NCBI GenBank assembly: GCA_964549935.1
Contig: CAZJVT010000002.1
Coordinates: 191,066 to 255,065, forward strand
Direction: 5' to 3'
DNA: 64,000 nucleotides
DNA from: an uncultured Candidatus Saccharibacteria bacterium
Lineage (GTDB): Bacteria > Patescibacteriota > Minisyncoccia > UBA6257 > 1-14-0-10-44-23
A program made the translations under genes and the position numbers. The notes beneath the pieces were generated by a model. It had not been told where the DNA came from. It made no database searches and saw nothing but the letters and a program-made list of their open reading frames with translations. This document shows positions 1,740 to 53,336 of the stretch, piece by piece; position 1 is the first letter of the stretch; the number at the start of each line of letters is the position of its first letter.

Positions 1740-3053
1740 ATGCCTCCGCGTTTTACTCGTACGCAAATTGTTATTGCCGGCATTGTTCTGGCAATCATAC
1801 TGCTCGTCATCCTCATCGCCACCGGCATTATCCCGGGCCTTCGGCAAAAACAAACCGGTGACAAGTTAACCGGCGATCTCACCGTTTGGGGAGTTTTTGA
1901 TGATGAGGTCGCCATCAACAGCACCCTCATAACCGAATTCCGCAACAAACACCCTCAGGTAAACATCACCTATAAAAAAATTGACGAGCGCAGCTATGAA
2001 AGCGATCTCGTTAATGCGCTTGCCGCCGGCACAGGTCCGGATGTATTCATGGTTCAAAACACCTGGCTGCCGAAGCATTACAACAAGCTCTCGCCTCGTG
2101 ATCCAAAGCAGTTCAATCTGGTTAACTTCGGTGAGCTATACCCGCAGGTCGTAGTCAAAGATTTTTCGAAGGACGGCAAAGTTTATGCCATGCCGCTGTA
2201 TGTCGACACGCTTGCGTTGCTTTACAACAAAAACTTGTTTGACGCCGCCGGTATTGCCCAGGTTCCAAAGAGCTGGGACGACCTGGTAAACGCGATCCCA
2301 CTACTGCGCCGATTAGATGACGGCGGTCGGATTTCACAAGCCGCAGCGGCTATCGGTGGCAGTACTCGTACGATTAACGGCGCCAACGACTTGCTCTTCC
2401 AGCTGATGATGCAGTTCGGTTCACAGATGACCAATGAACAACACACCTCGGCTAACTTCGGCTATTCCGGCAAGCAGGCGCTGGATTACTACTTAAGCTT
2501 CGGCAACCAGCGCAGCCCGGCATACACCTGGGATTACGGCGTCCACTATTCAATCGATGCCTTCGCCGAAGAATCAGTGGCAATGCTTTTTAATTATGGG
2601 TATCAACTCCAGCAACTAAAAGAAAAAAATCCCTTCCTGCAAATTGGCGTCGCGCCGATGCTACAAAAAACGGGTACGACGAAGCCTATCACCTACGCAA
2701 ACTACTTCGGCTTGGGCGTTTCGGCGACGAGCAAAAACAAAACACTTTCTTGGCTCTTCGTCGACGAGGCAACCGTTGATCCTGCAACGAATGCAAAATA
2801 TTTAAACGCCACCCACCGATCCCCCGCGCTACGATCACTGATTGCGACTTCGATGAACGACCCGGAGGTTGGCGTGTTTGCCAGGCAGGCTCTCCAGGCC
2901 AACTCCTGGTACCAGGGCGACAGCACCGAAGTTAACAGTACGTTTACCTCTATGCTAGACTTAATCGTAAGCGGCCAATTGAGCACGAGCCGCGCCCTTG
3001 ACCAGGCGGAACAGCTCGTAACCGAGTCTTTGCGCAAAACCTCGGGCCAATAA
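1740..3053 (+). CDS. Extracellular solute-binding protein (ABC sugar-uptake type, SBP family 1)
   Basis: N-terminal transmembrane anchor followed by a solute-binding-protein-like domain (TVWGVFDDE.., GTGPDVFMVQNTWLPK, YAMPLYVDTLALLYNKNLF); 437 aa. Confidence 0.65.
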   Translation: MPPRFTRTQIVIAGIVLAIILLVILIATGIIPGLRQKQTGDKLTGDLTVWGVFDDEVAINSTLITEFRNKHPQVNITYKKIDERSYESDLVNALAAGTGPDVFMVQNTWLPKHYNKLSPRDPKQFNLVNFGELYPQVVVKDFSKDGKVYAMPLYVDTLALLYNKNLFDAAGIAQVPKSWDDLVNAIPLLRRLDDGGRISQAAAAIGGSTRTINGANDLLFQLMMQFGSQMTNEQHTSANFGYSGKQALDYYLSFGNQRSPAYTWDYGVHYSIDAFAEESVAMLFNYGYQLQQLKEKNPFLQIGVAPMLQKTGTTKPITYANYFGLGVSATSKNKTLSWLFVDEATVDPATNAKYLNATHRSPALRSLIATSMNDPEVGVFARQALQANSWYQGDSTEVNSTFTSMLDLIVSGQLSTSRALDQAEQLVTESLRKTSGQ

Positions 3054-3054
3054 T

Positions 3055-3537
3055 ATGAAACTTCGACCAGCCAAACTCTCGCTCGCGATTTTACTGCTAA
3101 GTAGTATTTTAGTGACGGCAACTCCAGCCATTGTCGCGGCGGCAGATTTAGATGTTAACCCGGCAACGACCAGCTTGGCTAACGGCATTATGCCTGCTTG
3201 CGACCCGGGTTACAGCGATTTAAAGGGTGGGACGATAGGGCCAAAGGGCCTCCCTGCCTGCGGCGTGACGCAAGCCCTTCAGCTTATCTATAACATCATA
3301 AAATACGTTACTTACATCATCATCCCTATCGCCGTATTGCTCATTGGTTACGCCGGGTTTACGATTATGACCTCCGCCGGAGAGGCTGAAAAGATAAGTC
3401 AGGCGAAACACATGATCCAGCTCCTGGCTATTGGCATCGCTATTATTCTTCTCTCGACACTTATCGTTCAGTACGTATTTAAAGCAGTTGGCGTGCAGTC
3501 GACTAATATAACTAATATCACGCCGGGTGCGAAATAA
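3055..3537 (+). CDS. TrbC/VirB2-like T4SS-type pilin, paralog 1
   Basis: signal peptide, two hydrophobic helices, conserved core YAGFTIMTSAGEAEKISQAKHMI; the mature N-terminal region carries a Cys pair. Confidence 0.6.
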   Translation: MKLRPAKLSLAILLLSSILVTATPAIVAAADLDVNPATTSLANGIMPACDPGYSDLKGGTIGPKGLPACGVTQALQLIYNIIKYVTYIIIPIAVLLIGYAGFTIMTSAGEAEKISQAKHMIQLLAIGIAIILLSTLIVQYVFKAVGVQSTNITNITPGAK

Positions 3538-4256: not shown

Positions 4257-4679
4257 ATGAAGAAATTATTGACAGCTCTCGCGCTCGCTGGAATTACGCT
4301 AAGTTTCGCCGCACCTCTCGTCCTTGCTCAACCGGCGGGATCAATTACCTGCCCTACGGGCATCTCTGTTTCGGCTGGCACGCCCTGCCCATTACCAGAC
4401 AAAATCCTTGGCGGCGACGTAACAAATCTTGGCGGTGGCAGCTTTGTTGCTTTACTTCAGACGATTACTAACTGGATGTTTACTTTCCTGCTAGTGTTCG
4501 CTGTAATCATCTTCATCTACGCAGCTTATAAGTATCTTTTCTCTGGAGGCAACGAAGAAGGCACAACTGCCGCAAAGAACTACCTCATTTATGGCGTTAT
4601 CGCTATCGCAGTTGCGATGATGGCAAAAGGTATAACCTTTATCGTCGCCGAACTCTTAGGAGCAACGACTACGAAATAG
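4257..4679 (+). CDS. TrbC/VirB2-like T4SS-type pilin, paralog 4
   Basis: signal peptide; CPTGISVSAGTPCP Cys pair; motif AYKYLFSGGNEEGTTAAKNYLIYGVIAIAVAMM. Confidence 0.6.
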   Translation: MKKLLTALALAGITLSFAAPLVLAQPAGSITCPTGISVSAGTPCPLPDKILGGDVTNLGGGSFVALLQTITNWMFTFLLVFAVIIFIYAAYKYLFSGGNEEGTTAAKNYLIYGVIAIAVAMMAKGITFIVAELLGATTTK

Positions 4680-4704
4680 TTTTTTTTCTGTAACTGTATC
4701 CACT

Positions 4705-4728
4705 AAAAACCGCCTTCGGGCGGTTTTT
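4705..4728 (+). terminator. Rho-independent terminator after pilin paralog 4
   Basis: aaaaaccgcc-ttcg-ggcggttttt perfect hairpin followed by a T-run; the high-GC block starts immediately downstream. Confidence 0.7.
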
Positions 4729-4838
4729 AGCTTGATATAAAAACGACAGAAGCCCGGCCGGTGACATCCTCCCTTTTGGGGAGGAGCACCGAACCGGGCT
4801 TCAACTGCGCGTCGCCTTACGTCGACGCGCGAACGACT

Positions 4839-5387
4839 CTACCAGGCTTCTACGCTGAAGCGCTGGTTCACGGCCCTGACCTGAACGTAGAACGTCCCGG
4901 TCGAAGTCGTATCCCAAGCTATCCCGGCCCGAGCTTCGAATGGGTTGCCGTCCCCATTCTCAAGCAGGACCTGATAGCCCAGGTTGTCCGGCGCTCGAAT
5001 CTTGAAGCGCATGCCGCCGGAGACATGCACTCTGACCCACTGCCCGGGAAGCAGTGCGTCGGGAAACGACTTTTCTCCCGGAGAGTCCAGCGTCACGCTC
5101 GCGACCGGAACTTCCGGCGGAGTGTGCGCTTTCGGTGTGTGACTCGCCGCCACACCGACTGCGGCTTCCTTCTTGACTGCCTGCTCGACCGTGAAGTCGT
5201 GCGGCAGTTCAGGTGCAGTGGGTTTCCGGCTCTGGTAGAGCAGGTAGACCGCCGCGCCAATCAGCGCCCCCCAGAGGAGAAAGTACCTCAAGAGAACGAC
5301 CGCCCCCGGAAACGGGGGTTCCATCCCCTTCGGCAGCCGCCCTGCGGACTCCGCCTCGGGCGTAGCAGCATGTGCGTCGCCGCTCAT
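4839..5387 (-). CDS. Hypothetical membrane-anchored protein (high-GC cassette A, gene 2)
   Basis: 182 aa with one transmembrane helix (VVLLRYFLLWGALIGAAVYLLY); about 65% GC; its start overlaps the stop of the upstream gene by 4 bp, suggesting translational coupling. Confidence 0.55.
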   Translation of the reverse strand: MSGDAHAATPEAESAGRLPKGMEPPFPGAVVLLRYFLLWGALIGAAVYLLYQSRKPTAPELPHDFTVEQAVKKEAAVGVAASHTPKAHTPPEVPVASVTLDSPGEKSFPDALLPGQWVRVHVSGGMRFKIRAPDNLGYQVLLENGDGNPFEARAGIAWDTTSTGTFYVQVRAVNQRFSVEAW

Positions 5388-7216
5388 CGCGTACCTCCTC
5401 TTCTGCCAGCGAGTTCGCGCAGCGTCACGATGACGTCAGCGCCGATGCCGTTCGCGGTCACGATCTCCTCGTGAACATCCCGCTTCACGACACCGTCTTC
5501 GGCCAGGACAGCCTCTCTCGCCTTCTGCTTGATCTCGTCGCTCACTCCTGCGAAGGCAGTGAGCGCCTCCAGGTCCGTCACCTTGTCCGGTGACGCCCAG
5601 CGAGCCATGCGCAGCACCCGATTATTGGTCGTAACCAGGTCGGCGCCGGCCTTGTTCTCGGCTTCCAGTCGCTTGAGATCTTTCTGGATGAGAGCGACCG
5701 AACGAGCAACAAGAATCTCAAGCCACTTCCCGGTGGGCATGAGCTTGGTCAGGTTCAACCGCGTGATGATCACGCCGAAGACCTTGACCTTGATGTGCGC
5801 CCGCCCCTGCTCGAGGGCGTCCGCCATCTGATCCCGCGCCCAGAGGTAAGCCTCGAGGCGCTGGCCAACAAACTGCTTGGCCGCGGCCAGGTCACGGTAT
5901 CCCATCCCGGCCACGACCGCGAGGATCTTGGCCTTGACGGCGTCGATCGTCTTGAAGTCGGATCCCTTGAGATCCTCCTCCTTGACGTCTTCGCGGTGCC
6001 AGAGGCGCACCAGGAACGTCGGTACGCCCGGGACGACCTCCTTGGGCTTCGCCAGGAACTTGCGCTTCGCCTTCGCGACGCGCTTCTCCTCGGCGCGAAC
6101 CTCCACGGGAGTCGTGGGTGCGACAGGCGGGACAGGCGAGACGAACACGAGGTCCGCGCCCAACTCATTCGCACCGAGATGGTGCTCGTGAGCCCAGTGC
6201 GCGATGTGCCCCGTGATGACCGGCCAGAATTGATCCGGATACAGCTCCTTGACGATCGCCAAGGCGCCGCGACGGATTGCTCCGGGGACCTCCTCGCCGT
6301 ACTGCGGCCCGCTTGTGGGCGAGCGCAGCCACCGACGATACGACTCATTGAGCTGGTCGATCAGCTTCGGCAAAACGCCGGCAATGAACCCCTCATGCTT
6401 GAACGGCAAGAGACGGTTCGAGTCAGCCATGATGCCGATGCCCAAGTTGCCCGTGAAGGTGCTGTCCTCCGGGCCGAGAATCGGTTCCTCCTTGGAACCG
6501 ATGCAGGGATTGAAGTCCCCACCACTTACGTCCACCGGCTCCGGCTTGAACAGCCACCAGAGCAGCGGAATGCGAGCGCGACCTTCGAGAGGCTTGATCG
6601 CCGAAAGCATGATCCCGTTGAAGTCCAGGAATGCCTTCGTTTCCGGGTGTGATACCGAAAACCGCGCATACCCCTCGAACTTGTACGCGTCGTACAAGAC
6701 CCAGGAGATGATCGGAGCCGCGACGAGCGCCAGAGGCAACCAAGCCCCCATCGCCAGACACAGCACGATCGCGATTACAGTCCCCACCACGAAGCAAACA
6801 GTCCGAGCCCGCGCGTCGAACTCGGCGAGAATCGGGCCGAACTCCAGATGCGGGATCACGTCGTGGTGACCTCCCCCGCCAGGATGTTCGTCGTCATCGC
6901 CGAGTTCGGCGTGAGCACAGTGCCCCCGCGAACAGTTGATCGCCTCCTGCAGATGCGTGAGTGGTGGCCAGAGCCACCCCATCGCGCGCCCGACGTTGAA
7001 GGACAGCGGTGCGCCGGGCGGCGCAGCCGTACCGCGCATCTGCCACCAGCGAACCAGAGTATAGACGTTCAGCCCGATCGCCACGAAGGCGCCGAGCAGG
7101 CACGCCAGCTTCACCCAGGGATTCATCGTTCCGCGATCGGAGATCGCAGCGTACAACGAGTACGCAGCGCCGACGAACGCAGCGACGAGACCAACGAGCT
7201 TCAGGATTCTACGCAT
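5384..7216 (-). CDS. Hypothetical multi-pass membrane protein with His/Asp-rich loop and C-terminal coiled/SPFH-like region (high-GC cassette A, gene 1)
   Basis: 610 aa; N-terminal transmembrane helices; HAELGDDDEHPGGGGHHD loop; C-terminal region with IKVKVFGVIITRLNLTKL and KDLKRLEAENKAGADL, reminiscent of band-7/SPFH; about 65% GC; spurious antisense ORFs appear across it. Confidence 0.55.
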   Translation of the reverse strand: MRRILKLVGLVAAFVGAAYSLYAAISDRGTMNPWVKLACLLGAFVAIGLNVYTLVRWWQMRGTAAPPGAPLSFNVGRAMGWLWPPLTHLQEAINCSRGHCAHAELGDDDEHPGGGGHHDVIPHLEFGPILAEFDARARTVCFVVGTVIAIVLCLAMGAWLPLALVAAPIISWVLYDAYKFEGYARFSVSHPETKAFLDFNGIMLSAIKPLEGRARIPLLWWLFKPEPVDVSGGDFNPCIGSKEEPILGPEDSTFTGNLGIGIMADSNRLLPFKHEGFIAGVLPKLIDQLNESYRRWLRSPTSGPQYGEEVPGAIRRGALAIVKELYPDQFWPVITGHIAHWAHEHHLGANELGADLVFVSPVPPVAPTTPVEVRAEEKRVAKAKRKFLAKPKEVVPGVPTFLVRLWHREDVKEEDLKGSDFKTIDAVKAKILAVVAGMGYRDLAAAKQFVGQRLEAYLWARDQMADALEQGRAHIKVKVFGVIITRLNLTKLMPTGKWLEILVARSVALIQKDLKRLEAENKAGADLVTTNNRVLRMARWASPDKVTDLEALTAFAGVSDEIKQKAREAVLAEDGVVKRDVHEEIVTANGIGADVIVTLRELAGRRGGTR

Positions 7217-7698
7217 CTCTGTCTCCTCGACCCGCCTATGGCGGGTCAGAATATCTGACCCGCACCGCGGGCCTCGGTTTGGGTCCCGAGACCCTTTACC
7301 CGCGTCACAACAAGTGACGTTAGGGTCCCTCGTCTCCTGCTACCCCGCAATGGGGCAGGCCACGAAACAGGGATTTTGGGATCGATCATCGATTTTCGAC
7401 CCCAAAACTCCTGCTTCGTGCTTCAGAACACGAGAGATCCCTCAAAACCTAAGTTTTAAGGGCTTTTTAGCCCTCCTCCAATGAGGTTAAGGCGCTGTCA
7501 AAGAGCGGTCTTTACTGAACATATAGTATAGCATACTAATACTAATTTGTCAAGTATTAGGCGCTTTTTGCACTTTTTGGTCAATCAGTAAAAATCACGA
7601 ACAAATAAGCTCAAGTTTATCCACTGCCCTGCTCAAAAATAACTTCACGTATGTTATACTGAATGTAACGAATTAATTTTTACTATTAAAAACATCGT

Positions 7699-8046
7699 AT
7701 GAAGAAAACGTTACTCGCTCTTAGCACTATCGCAATGGTCGGACTGACTCCGCTCGCCGCTTTTGCAGTTGATATTCCGGCTACCACACCTGGCCCGGGC
7801 ATCCGCAGCTTCGAAGGCATTCTTAATGTGCTCGACACCGTCATCAACTGGATGTTCACGCTCCTGCTCGTTATGGCAGTAGTTATGATCATTTACGCCG
7901 CGTTTAGCTACTTGACCGCCGGCGGTGACGAGGAGAAGGTTGGCAAGGCGCACAAGGCTATCATCTACGCCGTCGTCGCTATCGCCGTCGCCTTCCTCTC
8001 AAAGGGCATCTCGTTCGTCGTCGCACAGCTTTTGGGGCAAGGATAG
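7699..8046 (+). CDS. TrbC/VirB2-like T4SS-type pilin, paralog 5
   Basis: signal peptide; motif AFSYLTAGGDEEKVGKAHKAIIYAVVAIAVAFL; separated from paralogs 1-4 by the high-GC insert. Confidence 0.6.
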   Translation: MKKTLLALSTIAMVGLTPLAAFAVDIPATTPGPGIRSFEGILNVLDTVINWMFTLLLVMAVVMIIYAAFSYLTAGGDEEKVGKAHKAIIYAVVAIAVAFLSKGISFVVAQLLGQG

Positions 8047-8142
8047 TACGTGTAACGTTAGACGTGAAACTTGCAACTTTCAAAACCGCGACGCCAGTCG
8101 CGGTTTTGATTTTGGGGCGAAAATAAGCGATACTACAACAAT

Positions 8143-8223
8143 GCTGGGGTGGCGAAATGGCAGACGCATCAGCCTTAGGAGCTGAAGCCGCGAGGCATGT
8201 GGGTTCAAGTCCCACCCCCAGCA
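8143..8223 (+). tRNA. tRNA-Leu (anticodon TAG)
   Basis: manual fold: acceptor GCTGGGG/CCCCAGC; anticodon stem TCAGC/GCTGA with loop CTTAGGA; 13-nt variable arm; T-arm GTGGG-TTCAAGT-CCCAC; discriminator A; CCA not encoded. Confidence 0.8.
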
Positions 8224-8371
8224 CAAAAACCAAAACACGGCCTTTAGGTCGTTCTTTGGTTTTTGTGCTTAGATGGACTTGAATCGTCGGACCGGAAATT
8301 TTCAGTATAAAATTTCGGGGAGAGGGTGCCCAGACCAACTGGGCGCGACGGCGCACAGTTGAGTCGAGGGC

Positions 8372-8390
8372 AAGTCCCACCCCCAGCACC
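8372..8390 (+). repeat. 19-bp direct repeat of the tRNA-Leu 3' end (att-like)
   Basis: caagtcccacccccagcac at 8372..8390 matches tRNA positions 8205..8223 exactly; the copy is followed by cca. Confidence 0.6.
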
Positions 8391-8464
8391 AACGAAAAAG
8401 TCCGGTCTTTGCTGGTTCTTTTTTGTCTTTGAGCTGACTAACTGTCGACTGACTAACCGACAAC

Positions 8465-9385
8465 TCATCTCCTCTGCCCGTGAAATTTCTTATGCACATC
8501 TCCTAATTGTTTGTTGGTCAGGTGCGTGTAAATTTGCGTCGTCGAGATATTGCTGTGGCCCAGCAGCTCCTGCACACTGCGCAGGTCGGCGCCATTTACG
8601 AGTAGGTCGGTGGCAAACAAGTGGCGCAGCTTGTGTGGCGTAACGTGCTCCGCGATGCCGGCCTTACGAGTGTAGTAATTAACCAGACGCTGCACAGCGC
8701 GCGGCGTGATCTTACCGATAACTTTTGGCGGTTTTTGCGACTTCTTGGGAACCTTACTTAAACTCACAAACATCCACTCGAGCGCGTCCCCGCGCTTATC
8801 CAAATACTTTTTAATCGTGGCCTTGCAGCTATCTGAAAAAAACACGACGCGCAGCTTCTCTCCCTTGCCGCGCACAGTAATCTCGCCGCGACTTAAGTCG
8901 AGATAACGGCTAAGCCCGCAGAGCTCAGAGACACGCAGCCCGGTTGAAAAAAGCGTCTCTAATACCGCTCGGTCGCGCAGCGCACGCAATCCCTCCCCTT
9001 CGGGTGCGCTCATCAGGCGCTCAAAGTCGCGATACTCCGGGATAGCAATCTGCCTTTGGGCAATCTTTGGTAACTCGATCTTATCGGCAGCTAAGACTTT
9101 ATAATCATGCTTGGCCAGATACTTTAAAAAGCTACGCAGCGCAATGACGTAGTAATTTTGAGTCACCTTTTTCATCGTTCCACCCCGGCCACTATCCATT
9201 GTCGACATTTTTACACGAAATGATTTCACGGCACGCTCGGTAATGTCCGACTCTGACTTAATCCCTGCGTCCTTTAAAAACACCTTGAGATAGTGCTCGT
9301 AGTTGCGCCGTGTTTTAGGCGACCGGCCCTTTTCGACGGTCAGATAGTCTAAGTAGTCTTGCAGGAGCTCCTCAATTTTCGCCAT
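8465..9385 (-). CDS. Tyrosine recombinase, XerC/XerD-family integrase
   Basis: 306 aa; C-terminal catalytic motifs LRHLFATDLLVNGADLRSVQELLGHSNISTTQIYTHL; N-terminal SAM-like domain; lies next to the tRNA-Leu direct repeat. Confidence 0.8.
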   Translation of the reverse strand: MAKIEELLQDYLDYLTVEKGRSPKTRRNYEHYLKVFLKDAGIKSESDITERAVKSFRVKMSTMDSGRGGTMKKVTQNYYVIALRSFLKYLAKHDYKVLAADKIELPKIAQRQIAIPEYRDFERLMSAPEGEGLRALRDRAVLETLFSTGLRVSELCGLSRYLDLSRGEITVRGKGEKLRVVFFSDSCKATIKKYLDKRGDALEWMFVSLSKVPKKSQKPPKVIGKITPRAVQRLVNYYTRKAGIAEHVTPHKLRHLFATDLLVNGADLRSVQELLGHSNISTTQIYTHLTNKQLGDVHKKFHGQRR

Positions 9386-40630: not shown

Positions 40631-40714
40631 GCCCGGGTGGCGGAACTGGCAGACGCAGAGGACTTAAGATCCTCCGGTATTTATACCTTGTGGGTTCGAT
40701 TCCCACCCCGGGCA
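40631..40714 (+). tRNA. tRNA-Leu (anticodon TAA)
   Basis: GCCCGGG acceptor; anticodon stem GAGGA/TCCTC with loop CTTAAGA; long variable arm; T-arm GTGGG-TTCGATT-CCCAC; discriminator A. Confidence 0.8.
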
Positions 40715-40717
40715 CAT

Positions 40718-41098
40718 ATGAACCAAGGAAGCGCAGTCGGAATTTTATATAAAGATGGCAAGGTGCTTGTTGAGCGTCGCCAGGCACACGAAAAGTTCTA
40801 CCCGGGTGCTGTCATGTTCCCGGGCGGGAGCATTGAAGACGACGAAACCCCGGAGCAGGGTCTTTTGCGCGAGATGCATGAGGAGCTTGGCATCACTATC
40901 AAAGCCTATCGCCCAGTTGGCATTTTTTATCACGCCGATGGACACAAGATAAATACCTTTCTCGTAACTGACTGGGAAGGCTCCCCTACAGCGCTCGAAG
41001 CCGCAGAAGTTTTTTGGATCTCCGACCCGGCAGAGATAACCGACGAAAAAAATCAAGAAATGTACCAGGCTGCCATTGAAAAAGCAGATATGCTATAG
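40718..41098 (+). CDS. NUDIX hydrolase
   Basis: Nudix box GGSIEDDETPEQGLLREMHEELGI; start at MNQGSAVG (ATG 40718) just after tRNA-Leu; the ORF-track extension to 40637 overlaps the tRNA and is rejected. Confidence 0.75.
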   Translation: MNQGSAVGILYKDGKVLVERRQAHEKFYPGAVMFPGGSIEDDETPEQGLLREMHEELGITIKAYRPVGIFYHADGHKINTFLVTDWEGSPTALEAAEVFWISDPAEITDEKNQEMYQAAIEKADML

Positions 41099-41213
41099 TT
41101 CCCCTACTATGTGGTTAGCACTTGGTCAGCTCAAAGGCGATTTTCCTAAGTAGGCAGTTTCCGCTGTCTCCGGCCGTTACCAAACGGCTTATTAAGCCTA
41201 CTTACTAATCACT

Positions 41214-41936
41214 ATGACTAAACTACTCTATTTAGAAAACTGGAACACGCTCACCTCACAAGCACTCATTACTGAAATCACGACCTATCAAGACAAACCG
41301 GCGCTCGTCCTCGACCAAACCGTCTTCTATCCACAAGGCGGCGGTCAGCCCTGGGACACGGGCACCATTGCCGGGCCACAGGGCACCTTTGACGTTCAAG
41401 CAGTGCGATTTGATAATGGCATCGTCTACCACCTTGGCGCCTTTACCTCCGGCACAATGCAAGCCGGCGAAACCGTTACCTGCAGTGTCGACCCGGACCG
41501 ACGCAACCTTAATAACAGACTGCACTCCGGCGGTCACGTCTTGGATATGGGCGTGCTCCTGCTCAAACTCAACTGGATTCCGGGTAAGGGCTACCACTTC
41601 CCCGACGGTCCGTACGTTGAGTACGCCGGGAGCCTGAATGGGCTGGATAAAGAAAAATTAAAAGTTGATCTCGAGACGGCAGCCAACAAATTCGTAACTG
41701 AAAACCGGCCTACGAGCATCCGCTTTATGCCGAAAGAAAAAATGCACGAGGTCTGCCACCACGTGCCTGATTATCTGCCGGAGGGCAAGCCGGCCCGCGT
41801 CGTGATGTACGGCGATTTCGGCGTACCGTGCGGCGGCACACACGTGAATGCGCTTGGCGAAATTGGCCACCTGACTATTCGTAAAATTAAACAGGAAGGC
41901 GATAAAATCAGGGTCGGCTACGACGTGAGTCGGTAG
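41214..41936 (+). CDS. alaX: AlaX-type alanyl-tRNA editing protein (Ser-tRNA(Ala) deacylase-like)
   Basis: FYPQGGGQPWDTG plus HxxxH (HSGGH) and CGGTH zinc motifs of the AlaRS editing/second-additional domain; 240 aa. Confidence 0.75.
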   Translation: MTKLLYLENWNTLTSQALITEITTYQDKPALVLDQTVFYPQGGGQPWDTGTIAGPQGTFDVQAVRFDNGIVYHLGAFTSGTMQAGETVTCSVDPDRRNLNNRLHSGGHVLDMGVLLLKLNWIPGKGYHFPDGPYVEYAGSLNGLDKEKLKVDLETAANKFVTENRPTSIRFMPKEKMHEVCHHVPDYLPEGKPARVVMYGDFGVPCGGTHVNALGEIGHLTIRKIKQEGDKIRVGYDVSR

Positions 41937-42001
41937 CGTTGCGCTCCGGCCAGGCTTTTGGTAGGGTCAGGGAGTCCCTGGGCACCGACAAGGAGGTCAC
42001 G

Positions 42002-42754
42002 TTGCGCGTTATCAAGAAAGGCCCGCTGCTTCGAGTCGCCGCAGTGGCGACCGGCGGCGGATCAACCGTGAAGGCGGTCCTCGAGCAGTGTCTCCCCGGC
42101 GGTAGACTGCACGGCCTCGTGGAGGTCGCAGTCATCGTCGGGACCAGGCCTGGCATCGAGGCGCTGGAACGCCCGAAGCAGGTCGTCGGAATGGAACACG
42201 TCCCGACTCGCGTTGTCGAGCGCAAGCTCGGCACGAAGACGGAGGTCCGGTTCGGCAAAGAGCTGATGAAGGTCTTCAATCAGTTCGACGTCGACATGTT
42301 CGCGCTCCTGGGATGCATCCCGACGATCCCAGGAAACGTCCTGGAAAAGTTCGTCGGAACCAACCAGCACCCTGCCCCACCGCAGCGCTTCGGCGGGAAG
42401 GGCTGGCACGGCATCCTGCCCTACGCTGCACAGCTCTACTACGTCCAGGACCTGGGTGCCAAGCACCCTGCGATCGTGGTGTCGCAGTGGGTCGCACCCG
42501 AAGTGGACGGTGGCAGCGTGATCCACTACGGGGAGGTCCCCATCCTCGACGGGGACACCCCGGAAGCGCTCCGCGACCGAGGACTGCCTGTCGAATGGGC
42601 GGTTCAGGTCGAGACGCTTCGGCGTCTCGCGACGGACACGGCCGAAGAAACGCCGTGCCCCTACAGTTGCACCCCGATGTCAGGAACCCGGGCGGGGGTC
42701 GCACTCGAGAATGCCAAGGCGCGTGCCTTGGCCGAGTACGGCCACCACAAGTAA
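42002..42754 (+). CDS. Formyltransferase-family protein (PurN/Fmt-like), high-GC cassette C
   Basis: VAAVATGGGSTVKAVLEQ plus NQHPAPPQRFGGKGWHGI resemble the PurN GS-N-LQAL and N-HPSLLP-F-G motifs; about 65% GC; AAGGAGG ribosome-binding site then TTG at 42002 (the ORF track opens at 41939, 2 bp after the alaX stop). Confidence 0.5.
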   Translation: MRVIKKGPLLRVAAVATGGGSTVKAVLEQCLPGGRLHGLVEVAVIVGTRPGIEALERPKQVVGMEHVPTRVVERKLGTKTEVRFGKELMKVFNQFDVDMFALLGCIPTIPGNVLEKFVGTNQHPAPPQRFGGKGWHGILPYAAQLYYVQDLGAKHPAIVVSQWVAPEVDGGSVIHYGEVPILDGDTPEALRDRGLPVEWAVQVETLRRLATDTAEETPCPYSCTPMSGTRAGVALENAKARALAEYGHHK

Positions 42755-42823
42755 CGGAGGAGAGCCTCGAGCTCCGGGGCGCCGACAGGCGCCCCGGAGA
42801 CTCACTTCAAAAAGATTTAAACA

Positions 42824-42856
42824 CAAAACCCGCCTTTCGGCGGGTTTTGTGTTTTC
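42824..42856. terminator. Bidirectional Rho-independent terminator
   Basis: aaacccgcc-tttc-ggcgggttttgtgtttt. Confidence 0.65.
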
Positions 42857-42860
42857 TTAC

Positions 42861-43337
42861 CTAATCAACGTTGTACTTAACGGTTACCTCCACTACCCGC
42901 TTACCCCAGGCAAGCGCAGCAGAGTGACTAGTCATCCAGATATCGAAGTGCGGCTTATCCATCGTGAGGTTAGTAGCATGGTCAAACTTACGAGCCATAC
43001 GGTCACCACACGTGTAATCACGGCCGTTAATCGTCACCTTCGTACCGAACGCATACTCACGACTGCAAGCAACCATACCATCGTACACCTCATGACCGTT
43101 AGCGGCGATAAACGGATCACGGTCGGTCTGACCAATCTCCGAGTTATAAGCAGTAACAGTAGCGGTGAAATGCTCAACGACGGTCTTCGGCATCACCTTC
43201 TCAACGATAGCGGAAACCGCCTTGTTGATGGAGTCCGGTCCATACATACCGATTGAGGGCTGCGCAACCGCGGCCGGAATCGGGAGCATGGCAACGAGAG
43301 CCACTGCGACGAGAACCTTTGCGATTGTGTTTTTCAT
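42861..43337 (-). CDS. Secreted 3D-domain protein (MltA/YuiC-like cell-wall-binding)
   Basis: signal peptide; VTAYNSEIGQTDRDPFIAANG..DYTCGDRMARKFD..FDIWM conserved Asp triad; 158 aa. Confidence 0.65.
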   Translation of the reverse strand: MKNTIAKVLVAVALVAMLPIPAAVAQPSIGMYGPDSINKAVSAIVEKVMPKTVVEHFTATVTAYNSEIGQTDRDPFIAANGHEVYDGMVACSREYAFGTKVTINGRDYTCGDRMARKFDHATNLTMDKPHFDIWMTSHSAALAWGKRVVEVTVKYNVD

Positions 43338-43569
43338 AGTGTTTATAAGGGTTCCCGGGCCGAAAGGGCCCTTTCCCCCTCAAAATAAAAACCCCCACTT
43401 CTAGAGGCTTTATAGGTTCATTATAGCACCCTTTCCTGGTTTTGTCAATACCCCACAATATCTAGCAGAATCTGTCAACCTGATAGCCTAAAAAGCCTTA
43501 TAAAATAAGGGTTTTTGACACTCCCGGTAAAACCGGCCACTTAAGGACCCGAAAAACGCGCCTCGTCAG

Positions 43570-43983
43570 CTACTCCTCGTCTCTCAAAGAAACCCGTACT
43601 GGCCGGGAGGCCAGGATGGGCATTTTTATGCGTAAAACACCGTTTTTTATGGTTGCCTCGGCCTTATCGGCATCAATCTCAATCGGTAGACTAATCTCCC
43701 GCGCAAATGAGCCCCAGTGGCACTCGTCAATGACATAGTCATGCTTCTTAGTCCGGTGTTCGCGGTGTCGCTTCCCTTCAATCGTCACTATCGTCGGAGT
43801 AATTTCGATGTTGATGTCCTCGCTCCGCACACCACCAATCGGCGCCTCTAAAACGAGGGTTTTGTCGGTCTGGAATAGATCAATAGCCAGCTGCCCAACG
43901 GCATCGGCATCCTCCTCCACGTGCGCATAGATATGCGGTTCACGGGCAAGCTCATGTAAGAATTGTTTTACGTCGTCGGCCAT
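43570..43983 (-). CDS. Hsp20/alpha-crystallin-family small heat-shock protein
   Basis: alpha-crystallin domain ..FAREISLP..A.IKNGVLRIKMP; 137 aa. Confidence 0.8.
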   Translation of the reverse strand: MADDVKQFLHELAREPHIYAHVEEDADAVGQLAIDLFQTDKTLVLEAPIGGVRSEDINIEITPTIVTIEGKRHREHRTKKHDYVIDECHWGSFAREISLPIEIDADKAEATIKNGVLRIKMPILASRPVRVSLRDEE

Positions 43984-44001
43984 ACGTTTAGTATACCACT
44001 G

Positions 44002-47167: not shown

Positions 47168-47527
47168 ATGCGTAACGGAAAGAAAGTCGTCCTGCACGTC
47201 GAGGACAAACTCCTGTATCAGGATCTGCTCGCGGCAGATCTTCGACGGTTCGCCGAGGTGATCAGGGCGTCATCAATCATCGAGGCGGAGGCCAAGTTCG
47301 CGGCCAACCAGGGCGTGATCGACGTCATCGTGATGGACGCCTGCGTCCCAGGCGAGACGCCAAACACGCTGCCCCTCGTGGCGCTCATCCGGCAGACCTT
47401 CAAGGGGCCGATGATCGCCTCCTCCGGTTTCCCCGGGTTCAGGAAGGACCTGATGGCTGTCGGATGTGACTCTGAATCTCCCAAGGAGGAGGTCGGAGCG
47501 GCAGTCCTCAGCGCTCTCGGCCTGTGA
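47168..47527 (+). CDS. Stand-alone receiver (REC/CheY-like) domain protein, high-GC cassette D
   Basis: KKVVLHVEDKLLYQDLL ... VIDVIVMDACVPGETP ... LPLVALIRQTF; about 62% GC; AAGGGAG ribosome-binding site; GC-rich terminator hairpins abut the tsaD stop. Confidence 0.55.
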   Translation: MRNGKKVVLHVEDKLLYQDLLAADLRRFAEVIRASSIIEAEAKFAANQGVIDVIVMDACVPGETPNTLPLVALIRQTFKGPMIASSGFPGFRKDLMAVGCDSESPKEEVGAAVLSALGL

Positions 47528-52835: not shown

Positions 52836-53336
52836 CTACAACTGGCGGATCCGAATCGCGACGCCGAAGCAGATCGCAAGTCCGAACATGAGCGATGCCA
52901 GCGACAGCACAGGCTTACGGCTTACGCGGTCGTGCACCCAGTCGTGCCAGACATAGTCGACCAGCCTGTACCCGATTCCTGCCTGCACGATGAGCGCCGA
53001 CACGAGCACGATGGCTTCTTCGAGGTTCGGCATACGCTTCTCGTGCCAGGCGGCCCAGAGGGCCACGATGAACATGATGTAGCCTACGGGCATCATGAGC
53101 ACCCGGAACGTAGCGAAGAACTGCTCTCTGTGCTCCGCGACCTGGTGCTGGGTGAGCAGCAAGATCTCGAATCCCAGCAGCACGAACAGCATCGAGACGT
53201 TCTGCGCAACGAGCGCGCAGGCGGCGGCCAGAGCCACCATCCCGATGAAGTGCATCCAGTTACGCAGAAACACGTGCAGCGCCGAGACGTGCTTCACGTC
53301 AACGATGATCGGCCTACCGTCAATTTCAACCTGCAT
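52836..53336 (-). CDS. Hypothetical 4-transmembrane-helix membrane protein (high-GC cassette E)
   Basis: 166 aa; about 61% GC; AAGGGAG ribosome-binding site; GC-rich hairpin downstream (52780..52820); host-type AT palindrome upstream. Confidence 0.5.
   Translation of the reverse strand: MQVEIDGRPIIVDVKHVSALHVFLRNWMHFIGMVALAAACALVAQNVSMLFVLLGFEILLLTQHQVAEHREQFFATFRVLMMPVGYIMFIVALWAAWHEKRMPNLEEAIVLVSALIVQAGIGYRLVDYVWHDWVHDRVSRKPVLSLASLMFGLAICFGVAIRIRQL

Follow-up and report, generated by a model that had tools for sequence, protein, structure and literature searches.

The window analysed here is a stretch of 64,000 nucleotides, and within it a GC-rich island lies between alaX, which encodes an AlaX-M-like alanyl-tRNA trans-editing protein, and a convergent gene for a 158-aa protein with a hydrophobic, signal-peptide-like N-terminus. 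The island comprises a promoter-like element, a leader, a coding sequence and a GC-rich hairpin, and its single ORF, at 42002-42754, starts with TTG and is preceded by AAGGAGG. The gene is intact and encodes a formyltransferase of PurN type, but a divergent one; the 250-aa product is identical in sequence to an NCBI protein encoded on a 266,666-bp contig. Coordinates of all features are collected in Table 1.

Table 1. Genes and signals at the formyltransferase locus (window positions).
Feature	Position	Strand	Detail or basis
alaX, AlaX-M-like alanyl-tRNA trans-editing protein, upstream neighbour	41214-41936	+	TAG 41934-41936
GC-rich island: promoter-like element, leader, CDS, GC-rich hairpin	41911-42800	.	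change-point scan, composition profiles
Promoter-like element	41939-41967	+	-35 TTGCGC 41939-41944, 17-nt spacer, extended -10 TGG-TAGGGT 41959-41967
Shine-Dalgarno AAGGAGG	41990-41996	+	5 nt 5' of the TTG start; direct sequence reading
CDS, long-PurN-clade formyltransferase, putative GAR transformylase, 250 aa	42002-42754	+	TTG start; TAA 42752-42754
GC-rich perfect hairpin, 12-bp arms, 4-nt loop	42772-42799	+	17 nt after the stop; inverted repeat
Low-GC bidirectional intrinsic terminator, 16-bp stem, A/T-run flanks	42819-42854	.	terminator scan, fold
Convergent 158-aa gene, hydrophobic signal-peptide-like N-terminus, downstream neighbour	42861-43337	-	ORF list

A two-change-point scan of positions 40700-44000 placed the island at 41911-42797, with 66.0% GC inside versus 51.0% outside and a log-likelihood ratio of 29.6; the mean of the 64-kb window is 51.8%. 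The likelihood hardly changes for a left edge anywhere between about 41906 and 41941, and this edge is thus compatible with the alaX stop codon, where the original prediction had located the switch in GC content. The right edge lies where the GC-rich hairpin ends. Against 64 non-overlapping ORFs of the window, the formyltransferase ORF stands out both in overall GC (0.653 versus a mean of 0.526, sd 0.040) and in GC3 (0.81 versus a mean of 0.60, sd 0.086). Further high-GC blocks are present in the window, one of which adjoins a tRNA gene and an integrase.

Three proteins recovered from other assemblies proved to be orthologs of the window protein and are used throughout for comparison: P0003, encoded at locus L005; P0157, encoded at locus L004; and P0159, known from a 995-bp contig only. 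The orthologs settle the start codon at 42002, because they begin at the homologous codon (ATG in L005, GTG in L004), and in an alignment of the upstream regions AGGAGG is kept at the equivalent position in both. The internal AAGGAGG plus TTG had been proposed from the outset as the probable start. A longer ORF of 271 aa opens with a TTG at 41939, the position at which the conserved -35-like hexamer begins; its 21 additional codons show no conservation.

The Pfam domain Formyl_trans_N (PF00551; cutoff 26.1 bits) matches the protein with 47.6 bits, and the alignment runs from position 2 to position 179 of a model of 181 positions. No match to Formyl_trans_C (PF02911) was found in the 250 residues, even at E<=1, nor did Pfam and NCBIfam models detect an ACT domain in them. 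The NCBIfam equivalog model for PurN, TIGR00639, scores the protein at 46.2 bits, below its cutoff of 150.1. The best sequence matches in the PDB are GAR transformylases (E of about 1e-9, 20-25% identity), and in these alignments G18-G-G-S-T22, N121/H123 and D169 pair with the phosphate loop and catalytic triad of solved PurNs. The PurN-like motifs named beforehand are real; they read ATGGGST (the GAR phosphate loop), N121-Q-H123-P and D169-G-G. Across the family, G18, G20, T22, N121, H123, P124, D169, G171, R193 and E198 are conserved. Those of the triad and the phosphate loop are invariant in the family or close to it. The phosphate loop, the Asn/His/Asp residues and E198 (the equivalent of Glu173 in the E. 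coli/human numbering) correspond to residues that bind GAR in solved PurNs.

An AlphaFold2 model built from a 131-sequence alignment reached a pLDDT of 95.5 and a pTM of 0.92. In a Foldseek comparison of this model with the PDB, the top 24 matches were all GAR transformylases (human, E. coli, M. tuberculosis and others), with E-values down to 1.2e-14, target-normalised TM scores of 0.75-0.86 and rmsd values mostly of 2.4-3.6 A, at most 5.3 A. They were followed by PurU, and then by sugar N-formyltransferases and Fmt. Together with the Pfam match and the 66% GC of the island, this GAR-transformylase fold bears out the proposal of a high-GC, PurN-like, folate-type formyltransferase. An affinity to Fmt or to sugar formyltransferases, which had also been considered, finds no such backing, given the missing Formyl_trans_C domain and the GAR transformylases among the best structural matches.

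To place the protein in a family, homologs were collected by sequence search and trees were built, by neighbour-joining only. A word-indexed search with the single protein returned itself and one relative. An exhaustive search of 1.84 billion cluster representatives (clusters at 50% identity) returned 930 proteins at E<=1e-3 and 228 clusters at E<=1e-10, and nearly all of the matches listed are 230-255 aa long. Common to these proteins are the signatures SGGGTT, NQHP, FGGxGMYG, D-x-G and LPxEHxVQI, as well as a C-terminal extension that ends in AKxxAxxxYPxG and corresponds to the helix at about residues 230-249 of the AlphaFold2 model. This long-PurN clade is split from the canonical PurN proteins of 190-215 aa with 100% bootstrap support, and among its source-labelled members none is actinobacterial, so the actinobacterial affinity raised in the original prediction was not recovered. 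At least one clade member is titled 'hypothetical protein' in NCBI.

Within this clade, the window protein is 47-50% identical to P0003 and 44-45% identical to P0157, with P0159 falling within 44-50%, and the four proteins form a branch with 98% bootstrap support. Inside it, the window protein pairs with P0003 (75%) and P0157 with P0159 (81%); P0006 appears as the sister of the branch with a bootstrap of only 44%. All nine of the clade members tested against TIGR00639 fall below its cutoff, with 31-86 bits; the ortholog branch scores 35-67 bits versus 47-86 bits in members adjacent to pur genes. Since members that reside within pur operons also fail this model, the failure reflects the reach of the model and is not evidence against function. 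At all residues conserved in at least 75% of the family, the four orthologs show either the family residue or a conservative substitution. Neofunctionalisation of the ortholog branch was considered and set aside, as its family-conserved columns show conservative changes only, plus an Ala-to-Pro change at residue 58.

We examined the genomic context of other clade members, and most of these loci involve purine biosynthesis. At L006 the formyltransferase gene (FT) lies in the order purF-FT-purH-purD-purM-purL-purQ-purC, and at L009/L010, from a Levybacteria MAG, in the order purM-FT-purQ-purL-lepA. The homolog is directly upstream of purD at L013 and L012, follows a large purL at L011, lies beside purL at L008 and follows purM at L001. 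At L007 and L015 it has no pur neighbours, and the L015 homolog adjoins a gene of the OTCase family. No second formyltransferase was called in the examined parts of the pur clusters, which suggests that the PurN step is the default role of the clade. Given that clade members sit inside purine operons, GAR transformylase is the best functional call for the family, and this operon context points to GAR as the likely substrate of the window protein as well.

The neighbourhood in the window is of another kind. Pfam assignments identify gyrA, type IV secretion system pilins, RNase Y, infB, rbfA and alaX, and further HSP20, PrsW, an aminoacyl-tRNA synthetase, tsaD, clpB and htrA, a typical CPR set. 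As the original prediction had noted for the window, no other pur genes are present: tblastn searches with PurF, PurH, PurD, PurM, PurL, PurQ, PurC and the large PurL found none in the 64-kb window or at L002, L004, L005 and L014. Nor did the window, or about 40 kb of syntenic sequence in relatives, yield any further gene for purine, folate or C1 metabolism. In a search with the PurD of L013, none of the best 120 of about 8000 hits lay on a contig of 266,666 bp or 601,890 bp, the lengths of the contigs that encode the window protein and P0003.

Comparison with characterized enzymes places the window protein closest to PurN (PF00551, TIGR00639; 1CDE from E. coli and 4ZYV, the human GART domain). 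The two share the single-domain Formyl_trans_N fold, the Asn-His-Asp triad, the glycine-rich phosphate loop and the conserved Glu of the GAR ribose site, and relatives of the window protein fill the purN slot in pur operons. The window protein is, however, about 40 aa longer than PurN, with the family-specific C-terminal helix at about 230-249 and its YP.G-like end; it has an insert after the NQHP motif; its signatures are SGGGTT/NQHP/FGGxGMYG where those of PurN are GSGSN/N(I)HPSLLP; its identity to solved PurNs is only 18-25%; and no pur gene adjoins it in the 64-kb window.

The other enzymes that share this fold differ in domain content. PurU, the formyltetrahydrofolate deformylase, has the same catalytic domain and triad and is the next-best structural match (3NRB and others), but it is about 280 aa long and carries an N-terminal ACT domain that the window protein lacks; the PurU model does not match the window protein or its orthologs and weakly matches a few pur-operon members. 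Fmt and the sugar N-formyltransferases (WbkC, the N-terminal domain of ArnA, 6V33) share the N-terminal formyltransferase domain. They carry a C-terminal substrate-binding domain (PF02911 or equivalents) in place of which the window protein has an extension of about 40 aa with one helix, and they rank well below the GAR transformylases in both Foldseek E-value and rmsd. The auxiliary purN of cyanophages (phrog_9240) is of PurN type and moves horizontally as a single gene; its match to the window protein is weak (23.8 bits).

The gene appears to be equipped with expression signals of its own. The promoter-like element begins 2 nt past the alaX stop codon, and in the alignment of upstream regions TTGC, the 17-nt spacing and TTTG-N-TAGGGT are invariant among the window, L005 and L004. 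The -35-like hexamer varies between TTGCGC and TTGCAT (consensus TTGCRY), and the extended -10 is of the TGN-TANNNT type. A single match to the element occurs in the 64-kb window, versus 0.09 expected by chance. The junction between the alaX stop and the -35-like hexamer is common to the window and L004. The recurrence of the element in three lineages, so close behind the stop codon of alaX, argues for an autonomous promoter, from which transcription would start near 41974. The predicted leader, of about 28 nt, is too short for a riboswitch, and an Rfam search at gathering thresholds reported tRNAs only, with no ZTP, THF or purine riboswitch in the leader. A generic scan for sigma-70 promoters missed the element, because TAGGGT agrees with TATAAT at only three of six positions.

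The original prediction had described the gene as fused onto the end of the alaX transcription unit. This description stands in part: a terminator scan found no terminator between the two genes, so that read-through from alaX is possible and may add to expression, whereas the conserved -35 and extended -10 argue for a putative promoter of the gene's own.

Downstream of the coding sequence, the GC-rich hairpin has a folding energy of -40 kcal/mol (z = -7.2). Hairpins 3' of all three orthologous genes (window, L005 and L004) are perfect, with stems of 12-15 bp and energies of -34 to -40 kcal/mol; those at L005 and L004 are 14-15 bp long, GC-rich and different in sequence, with z of about -6.8. 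The hairpin of the window is likely to be a terminator or an mRNA-stabilising stem. It is followed by the low-GC bidirectional terminator (-28.5 kcal/mol, z = -8), which also serves the convergent downstream gene and whose core, AAAACCCGCCTTTCGGCGGGTTTTG, is identical in L005.

The neighbouring genes provide a means of following the locus across relatives. The alaX product matches the C-terminal region of Pfam tRNA-synt_2c as well as tRNA_SAD, and it scores 112 bits against the NCBIfam AlaXM model, under the cutoff of that model; it is 57% identical to the product of the gene that precedes the formyltransferase ortholog at L004. The convergent 158-aa protein has no significant Pfam match and matches phrog_6631 weakly, and is 48-55% identical to its counterparts at L005, L004 and L014. 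P0003 is encoded on contig JAHFLF010000001 (601,890 bp) of a MAG labelled Candidatus Harrisonbacteria and is also found in ENA and Logan assemblies. At this locus, infB, rbfA and other genes lead to an ABC transporter gene and the formyltransferase gene, and these are followed by an opposite-strand series (a 162-aa gene, HSP20, PrsW, a class-I aminoacyl-tRNA synthetase, tsaD) that is the same as that downstream in the window. P0157 follows alaX, as in the window, and two extra opposite-strand genes separate it from the 158-aa homolog, HSP20 and PrsW. A scan of genome contigs with an alignment of the four sequences matched only the Harrisonbacteria-labelled MAG, and one with the single 250-aa protein gave no match; no relatives of the protein were found in viral contigs (IMG/VR).

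Flanking proteins of the window are 52-81% identical to those of L005 and 50-60% identical to those of L004. The identities of the formyltransferase itself, 47% and 44%, are at the low end of these comparisons, in line with the least-conserved neighbours. At L014, the 158-aa gene is directly convergent with the ABC transporter gene and no formyltransferase gene lies between them, so that the site is empty. L014 most resembles L004, with 63-70% identity between their 158-aa and between their HSP20 proteins, and the empty site is most simply explained by loss.

Taken together, the conservation of the locus, the junction, the promoter-like element and the hairpin in diverged relatives indicates that the gene is not a recent insertion. 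At four-fold degenerate sites of conserved residues, the orthologs are identical at a frequency of 0.32-0.42, versus 0.33-0.35 expected from composition, so that these sites are at or near saturation. The flanking genes are likewise near saturation, with 0.33-0.42 versus 0.27-0.32 expected. At the flanks of the island, target-site duplications, terminal inverted repeats and attC-like sites gave chance-level matches only, and the roughly 30 kb to the left and to the right of the gene contained no recombinase. The gene is thus a long resident of a CPR lineage.

It is also compositionally foreign. Across all three genomes the gene has 62-65% GC versus 50-53% in the flanks (62.7% versus 50.7% at L005; 62.1% versus 52.1% at L004), and the GC content of four-fold sites is 0.67-0.83 in the orthologs versus 0.60-0.73 in most flanking genes, with one flanking gene at 0.42. 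Elsewhere in the clade, the L007 homolog exceeds its surroundings by 19 points of GC; at L012, L011 and L008 the homolog and the adjoining pur genes are together GC-richer than their surroundings; and at L006, L009 and L013 the homolog is not above its surroundings. This clade-wide pattern is consistent with purN, or small clusters of pur genes, having spread horizontally from sources richer in GC. The high GC3 has outlasted the saturation of synonymous sites, contrary to the prediction of simple amelioration after an old transfer.

The explanation that we favor, with a probability of about 0.62, is that the locus holds a self-contained long-PurN unit, likely to have PurN activity, that was acquired long ago from a GC-richer lineage by an ancestor within the CPR. 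A GC-richer lineage would probably have passed the gene, not recently, to the common ancestor of a group of CPR (Patescibacteria); we infer both the direction and the age of this transfer. It would then have been inherited vertically at this locus under purifying selection, and been absent from or lost in at least one relative. The predicted unit consists of the promoter-like element, the Shine-Dalgarno sequence, the 250-aa coding sequence and the GC-rich terminator hairpin. The most likely activity of its product would be the transfer of the formyl group of 10-formyl-tetrahydrofolate to glycinamide ribonucleotide (GAR), with predicted catalysis by the conserved Asn121/His123/Asp169 triad. Counting against this explanation, no other pur gene was found in the window or at the syntenic loci of relatives, and PurN without PurD and PurL would have no substrate. 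Long-term purifying selection on PurN is most simply explained by a pathway encoded elsewhere in the genome, which is where the remaining purine genes of this organism would be expected.

A second explanation, which we regard as improbable but the most credible of the alternatives, is that the gene is an orphan formyltransferase that acts outside purine synthesis, in a host without the rest of the de novo pathway. Such an enzyme may formylate another amine-bearing metabolite or a cell-envelope precursor, or may hydrolyse and recycle 10-formyl-THF in the manner of PurU. The lack of pur genes in the window and in the syntenic DNA of relatives agrees with this explanation, as do the biosynthesis-poor surroundings, which are oriented toward the cell surface and translation and are typical of CPR; the intact gene in at least four lineages; the similar lack of pur neighbours at L007 and L015; and the fold shared with PurU and sugar N-formyltransferases. 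However, the GAR-binding residues of solved PurNs are all conserved, the ortholog branch is no farther from PurN models than are the pur-adjacent members of the clade, and the protein has neither the ACT domain of PurU nor the C-terminal domain of Fmt and the sugar formyltransferases. Moreover, the search for pur genes covered less than 10-25% of the genome, and in one survey complete de novo purine synthesis was present in ~32% of CPR MAGs, about a third (PMC11608272). Somewhat less plausible still is the proposal that a clade of small-genome CPR bacteria has long kept a lone, acquired enzyme of the PurN fold for another use, for instance to formylate an intermediate that is scavenged, or some other amine, or to manage the pool of 10-formyl-THF, with its high GC maintained by gene-specific selection or by repeated replacement from GC-rich donors.

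The original prediction had treated the locus as a cassette, and a third explanation is accordingly that high-GC DNA from an actinobacterium-like donor recently became attached to the 3' end of the alaX operon, from which it is expressed by read-through. The sharp step in GC at the alaX stop, the lack of a terminator between the two genes, the GC-rich hairpin without a U-tract (which resembles the terminators of high-GC bacteria), and the other high-GC blocks of the window, including the one beside a tRNA gene and an integrase, would be in keeping with such an event. Nevertheless, we consider it very unlikely. The gene occupies the same locus in relatives whose housekeeping proteins are 50-81% identical, the junction with alaX and the promoter-like element are conserved, synonymous sites are saturated among the orthologs, and the orthologs form a well-supported branch (98% bootstrap) whose nearest relatives are metagenomic or CPR proteins, none of them labelled actinobacterial. 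Flanking direct or inverted repeats and an attC-like site are also lacking at the island, and relatives are lacking among viral contigs. The unit differs from integron-type cassettes in having no attC-like site, a 3' hairpin that is a perfect 12-bp GC stem, and a promoter-like element of its own. Finally, a decaying remnant of a pur cluster that has otherwise been lost, or a chimera created during assembly or binning, might account for a composition unlike that of the flanks in a source that is probably a MAG, but is highly improbable given an ORF that four lineages have kept intact together with all of its catalytic residues, the same junctions in independent NCBI, ENA and Logan assemblies, a model that folds with very high confidence, and conserved regulatory elements.

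The long-PurN unit favored here illustrates that a razor-sharp GC island can nonetheless be old, so that sharp GC steps alone are not proof of recent insertion. More broadly, the long-PurN clade (~240 aa) fills the purN slot in the pur operons of poorly known lineages. Because the tested members all fall below the NCBIfam cutoff, metabolic reconstructions of CPR bacteria and other MAGs may wrongly report the GAR transformylase step as missing. If the host should prove to have no other pur genes, the enzyme would become a candidate case of symbiotic bacteria putting the PurN fold to a new use.

An empty site is present in L014, a locus from a relative that carries the 158-aa gene without the formyltransferase (JGI Ga0066639_10024328, positions 1762-3302). 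There, the 158-aa homolog and a convergent ABC-transporter ATPase gene are only 35 bp apart, and this gap holds one terminator hairpin. This ATPase shares 77% identity with the gene located immediately 5' of the formyltransferase in L005, from the Harrisonbacteria-labelled relative that has the formyltransferase ortholog at the same site. In the window, a sigma-70 promoter that matches the consensus perfectly is positioned 5' of the 158-aa secreted-protein gene. The order 3' of rbfA in the window is tRNA-Cys, tRNA-Leu, a NUDIX gene and alaX. With its listed start, the NUDIX ORF overlaps tRNA-Leu; judging from this overlap, its true start must lie 3' of that tRNA.

Elevated GC content was also observed among other members of the long-PurN clade. 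In three loci (L008, L011 and L012), the pur genes adjoining the long-PurN homolog exceed other genes of the same contig in GC. In L012, for instance, the homolog (61.5%) and a purD fragment (61.8%) stand against an upstream gene at 43.7%. L011 has purL at 52% and the homolog at 50%, compared with 35% downstream of them. The pur genes look like compositional islands in these genomes too.

The Harrisonbacteria-labelled relative has a further GC-rich island at L002 17613-20765 (L005 from about 15607), within a genome of 50% GC. It includes a kynureninase-like Aminotran_5 gene of 65% GC, adjoined by two phage-integrase genes. In addition, L002 carries a bAvd/23S_rRNA_IVP-family gene between infB and rbfA (5372-5734) that is absent from the window and that may be a diversity-generating retroelement accessory gene.

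Other GC-rich ORFs were found in the window. Two small outliers had no match in Pfam; at the first of these, the true gene may instead lie on the other strand, given that L002 encodes a minus-strand 135-aa gene between an aaRS gene and tsaD. A larger pair of ORFs gave zero matches in Pfam, PHROG and NCBIfam. This pair is flanked by T4SS-pilin genes and followed by a tRNA-Leu and then a tyrosine recombinase. The region, 4257-9385 with its flanks, resembles an integrative island located next to a tRNA gene.

Features of the window discussed here
Feature	Position	Strand	Details
T4SS-pilin genes	4257-4679 and 7699-8046
ORF pair, 237 aa and 610 aa	4761-7216	+ and -	both ~63% GC
tRNA-Leu	8143-8224
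Tyrosine recombinase	8465-9385	-
tRNA-Leu	40631-40715
NUDIX ORF	40631-41098 region		listed start GTG 40637
Sigma-70 consensus promoter	43420-43448	-	TTGACA-17-TATAAT, extended TG; 12/12
Small ORF	47168-47527		62% GC, GC3 0.80
Small ORF	52836-53336		60% GC, GC3 0.84

All long-PurN clade members tested scored 31-86 bits with NCBIfam TIGR00639, below its cutoff of 150. The clade is represented by P0002-P0167 and by loci L006, L009 and L013, and the members tested included some from complete pur operons. One clade member, Levybacteria HY427_01735, was deposited under the name 'hypothetical protein'. This long form of PurN will escape automated pathway calls.
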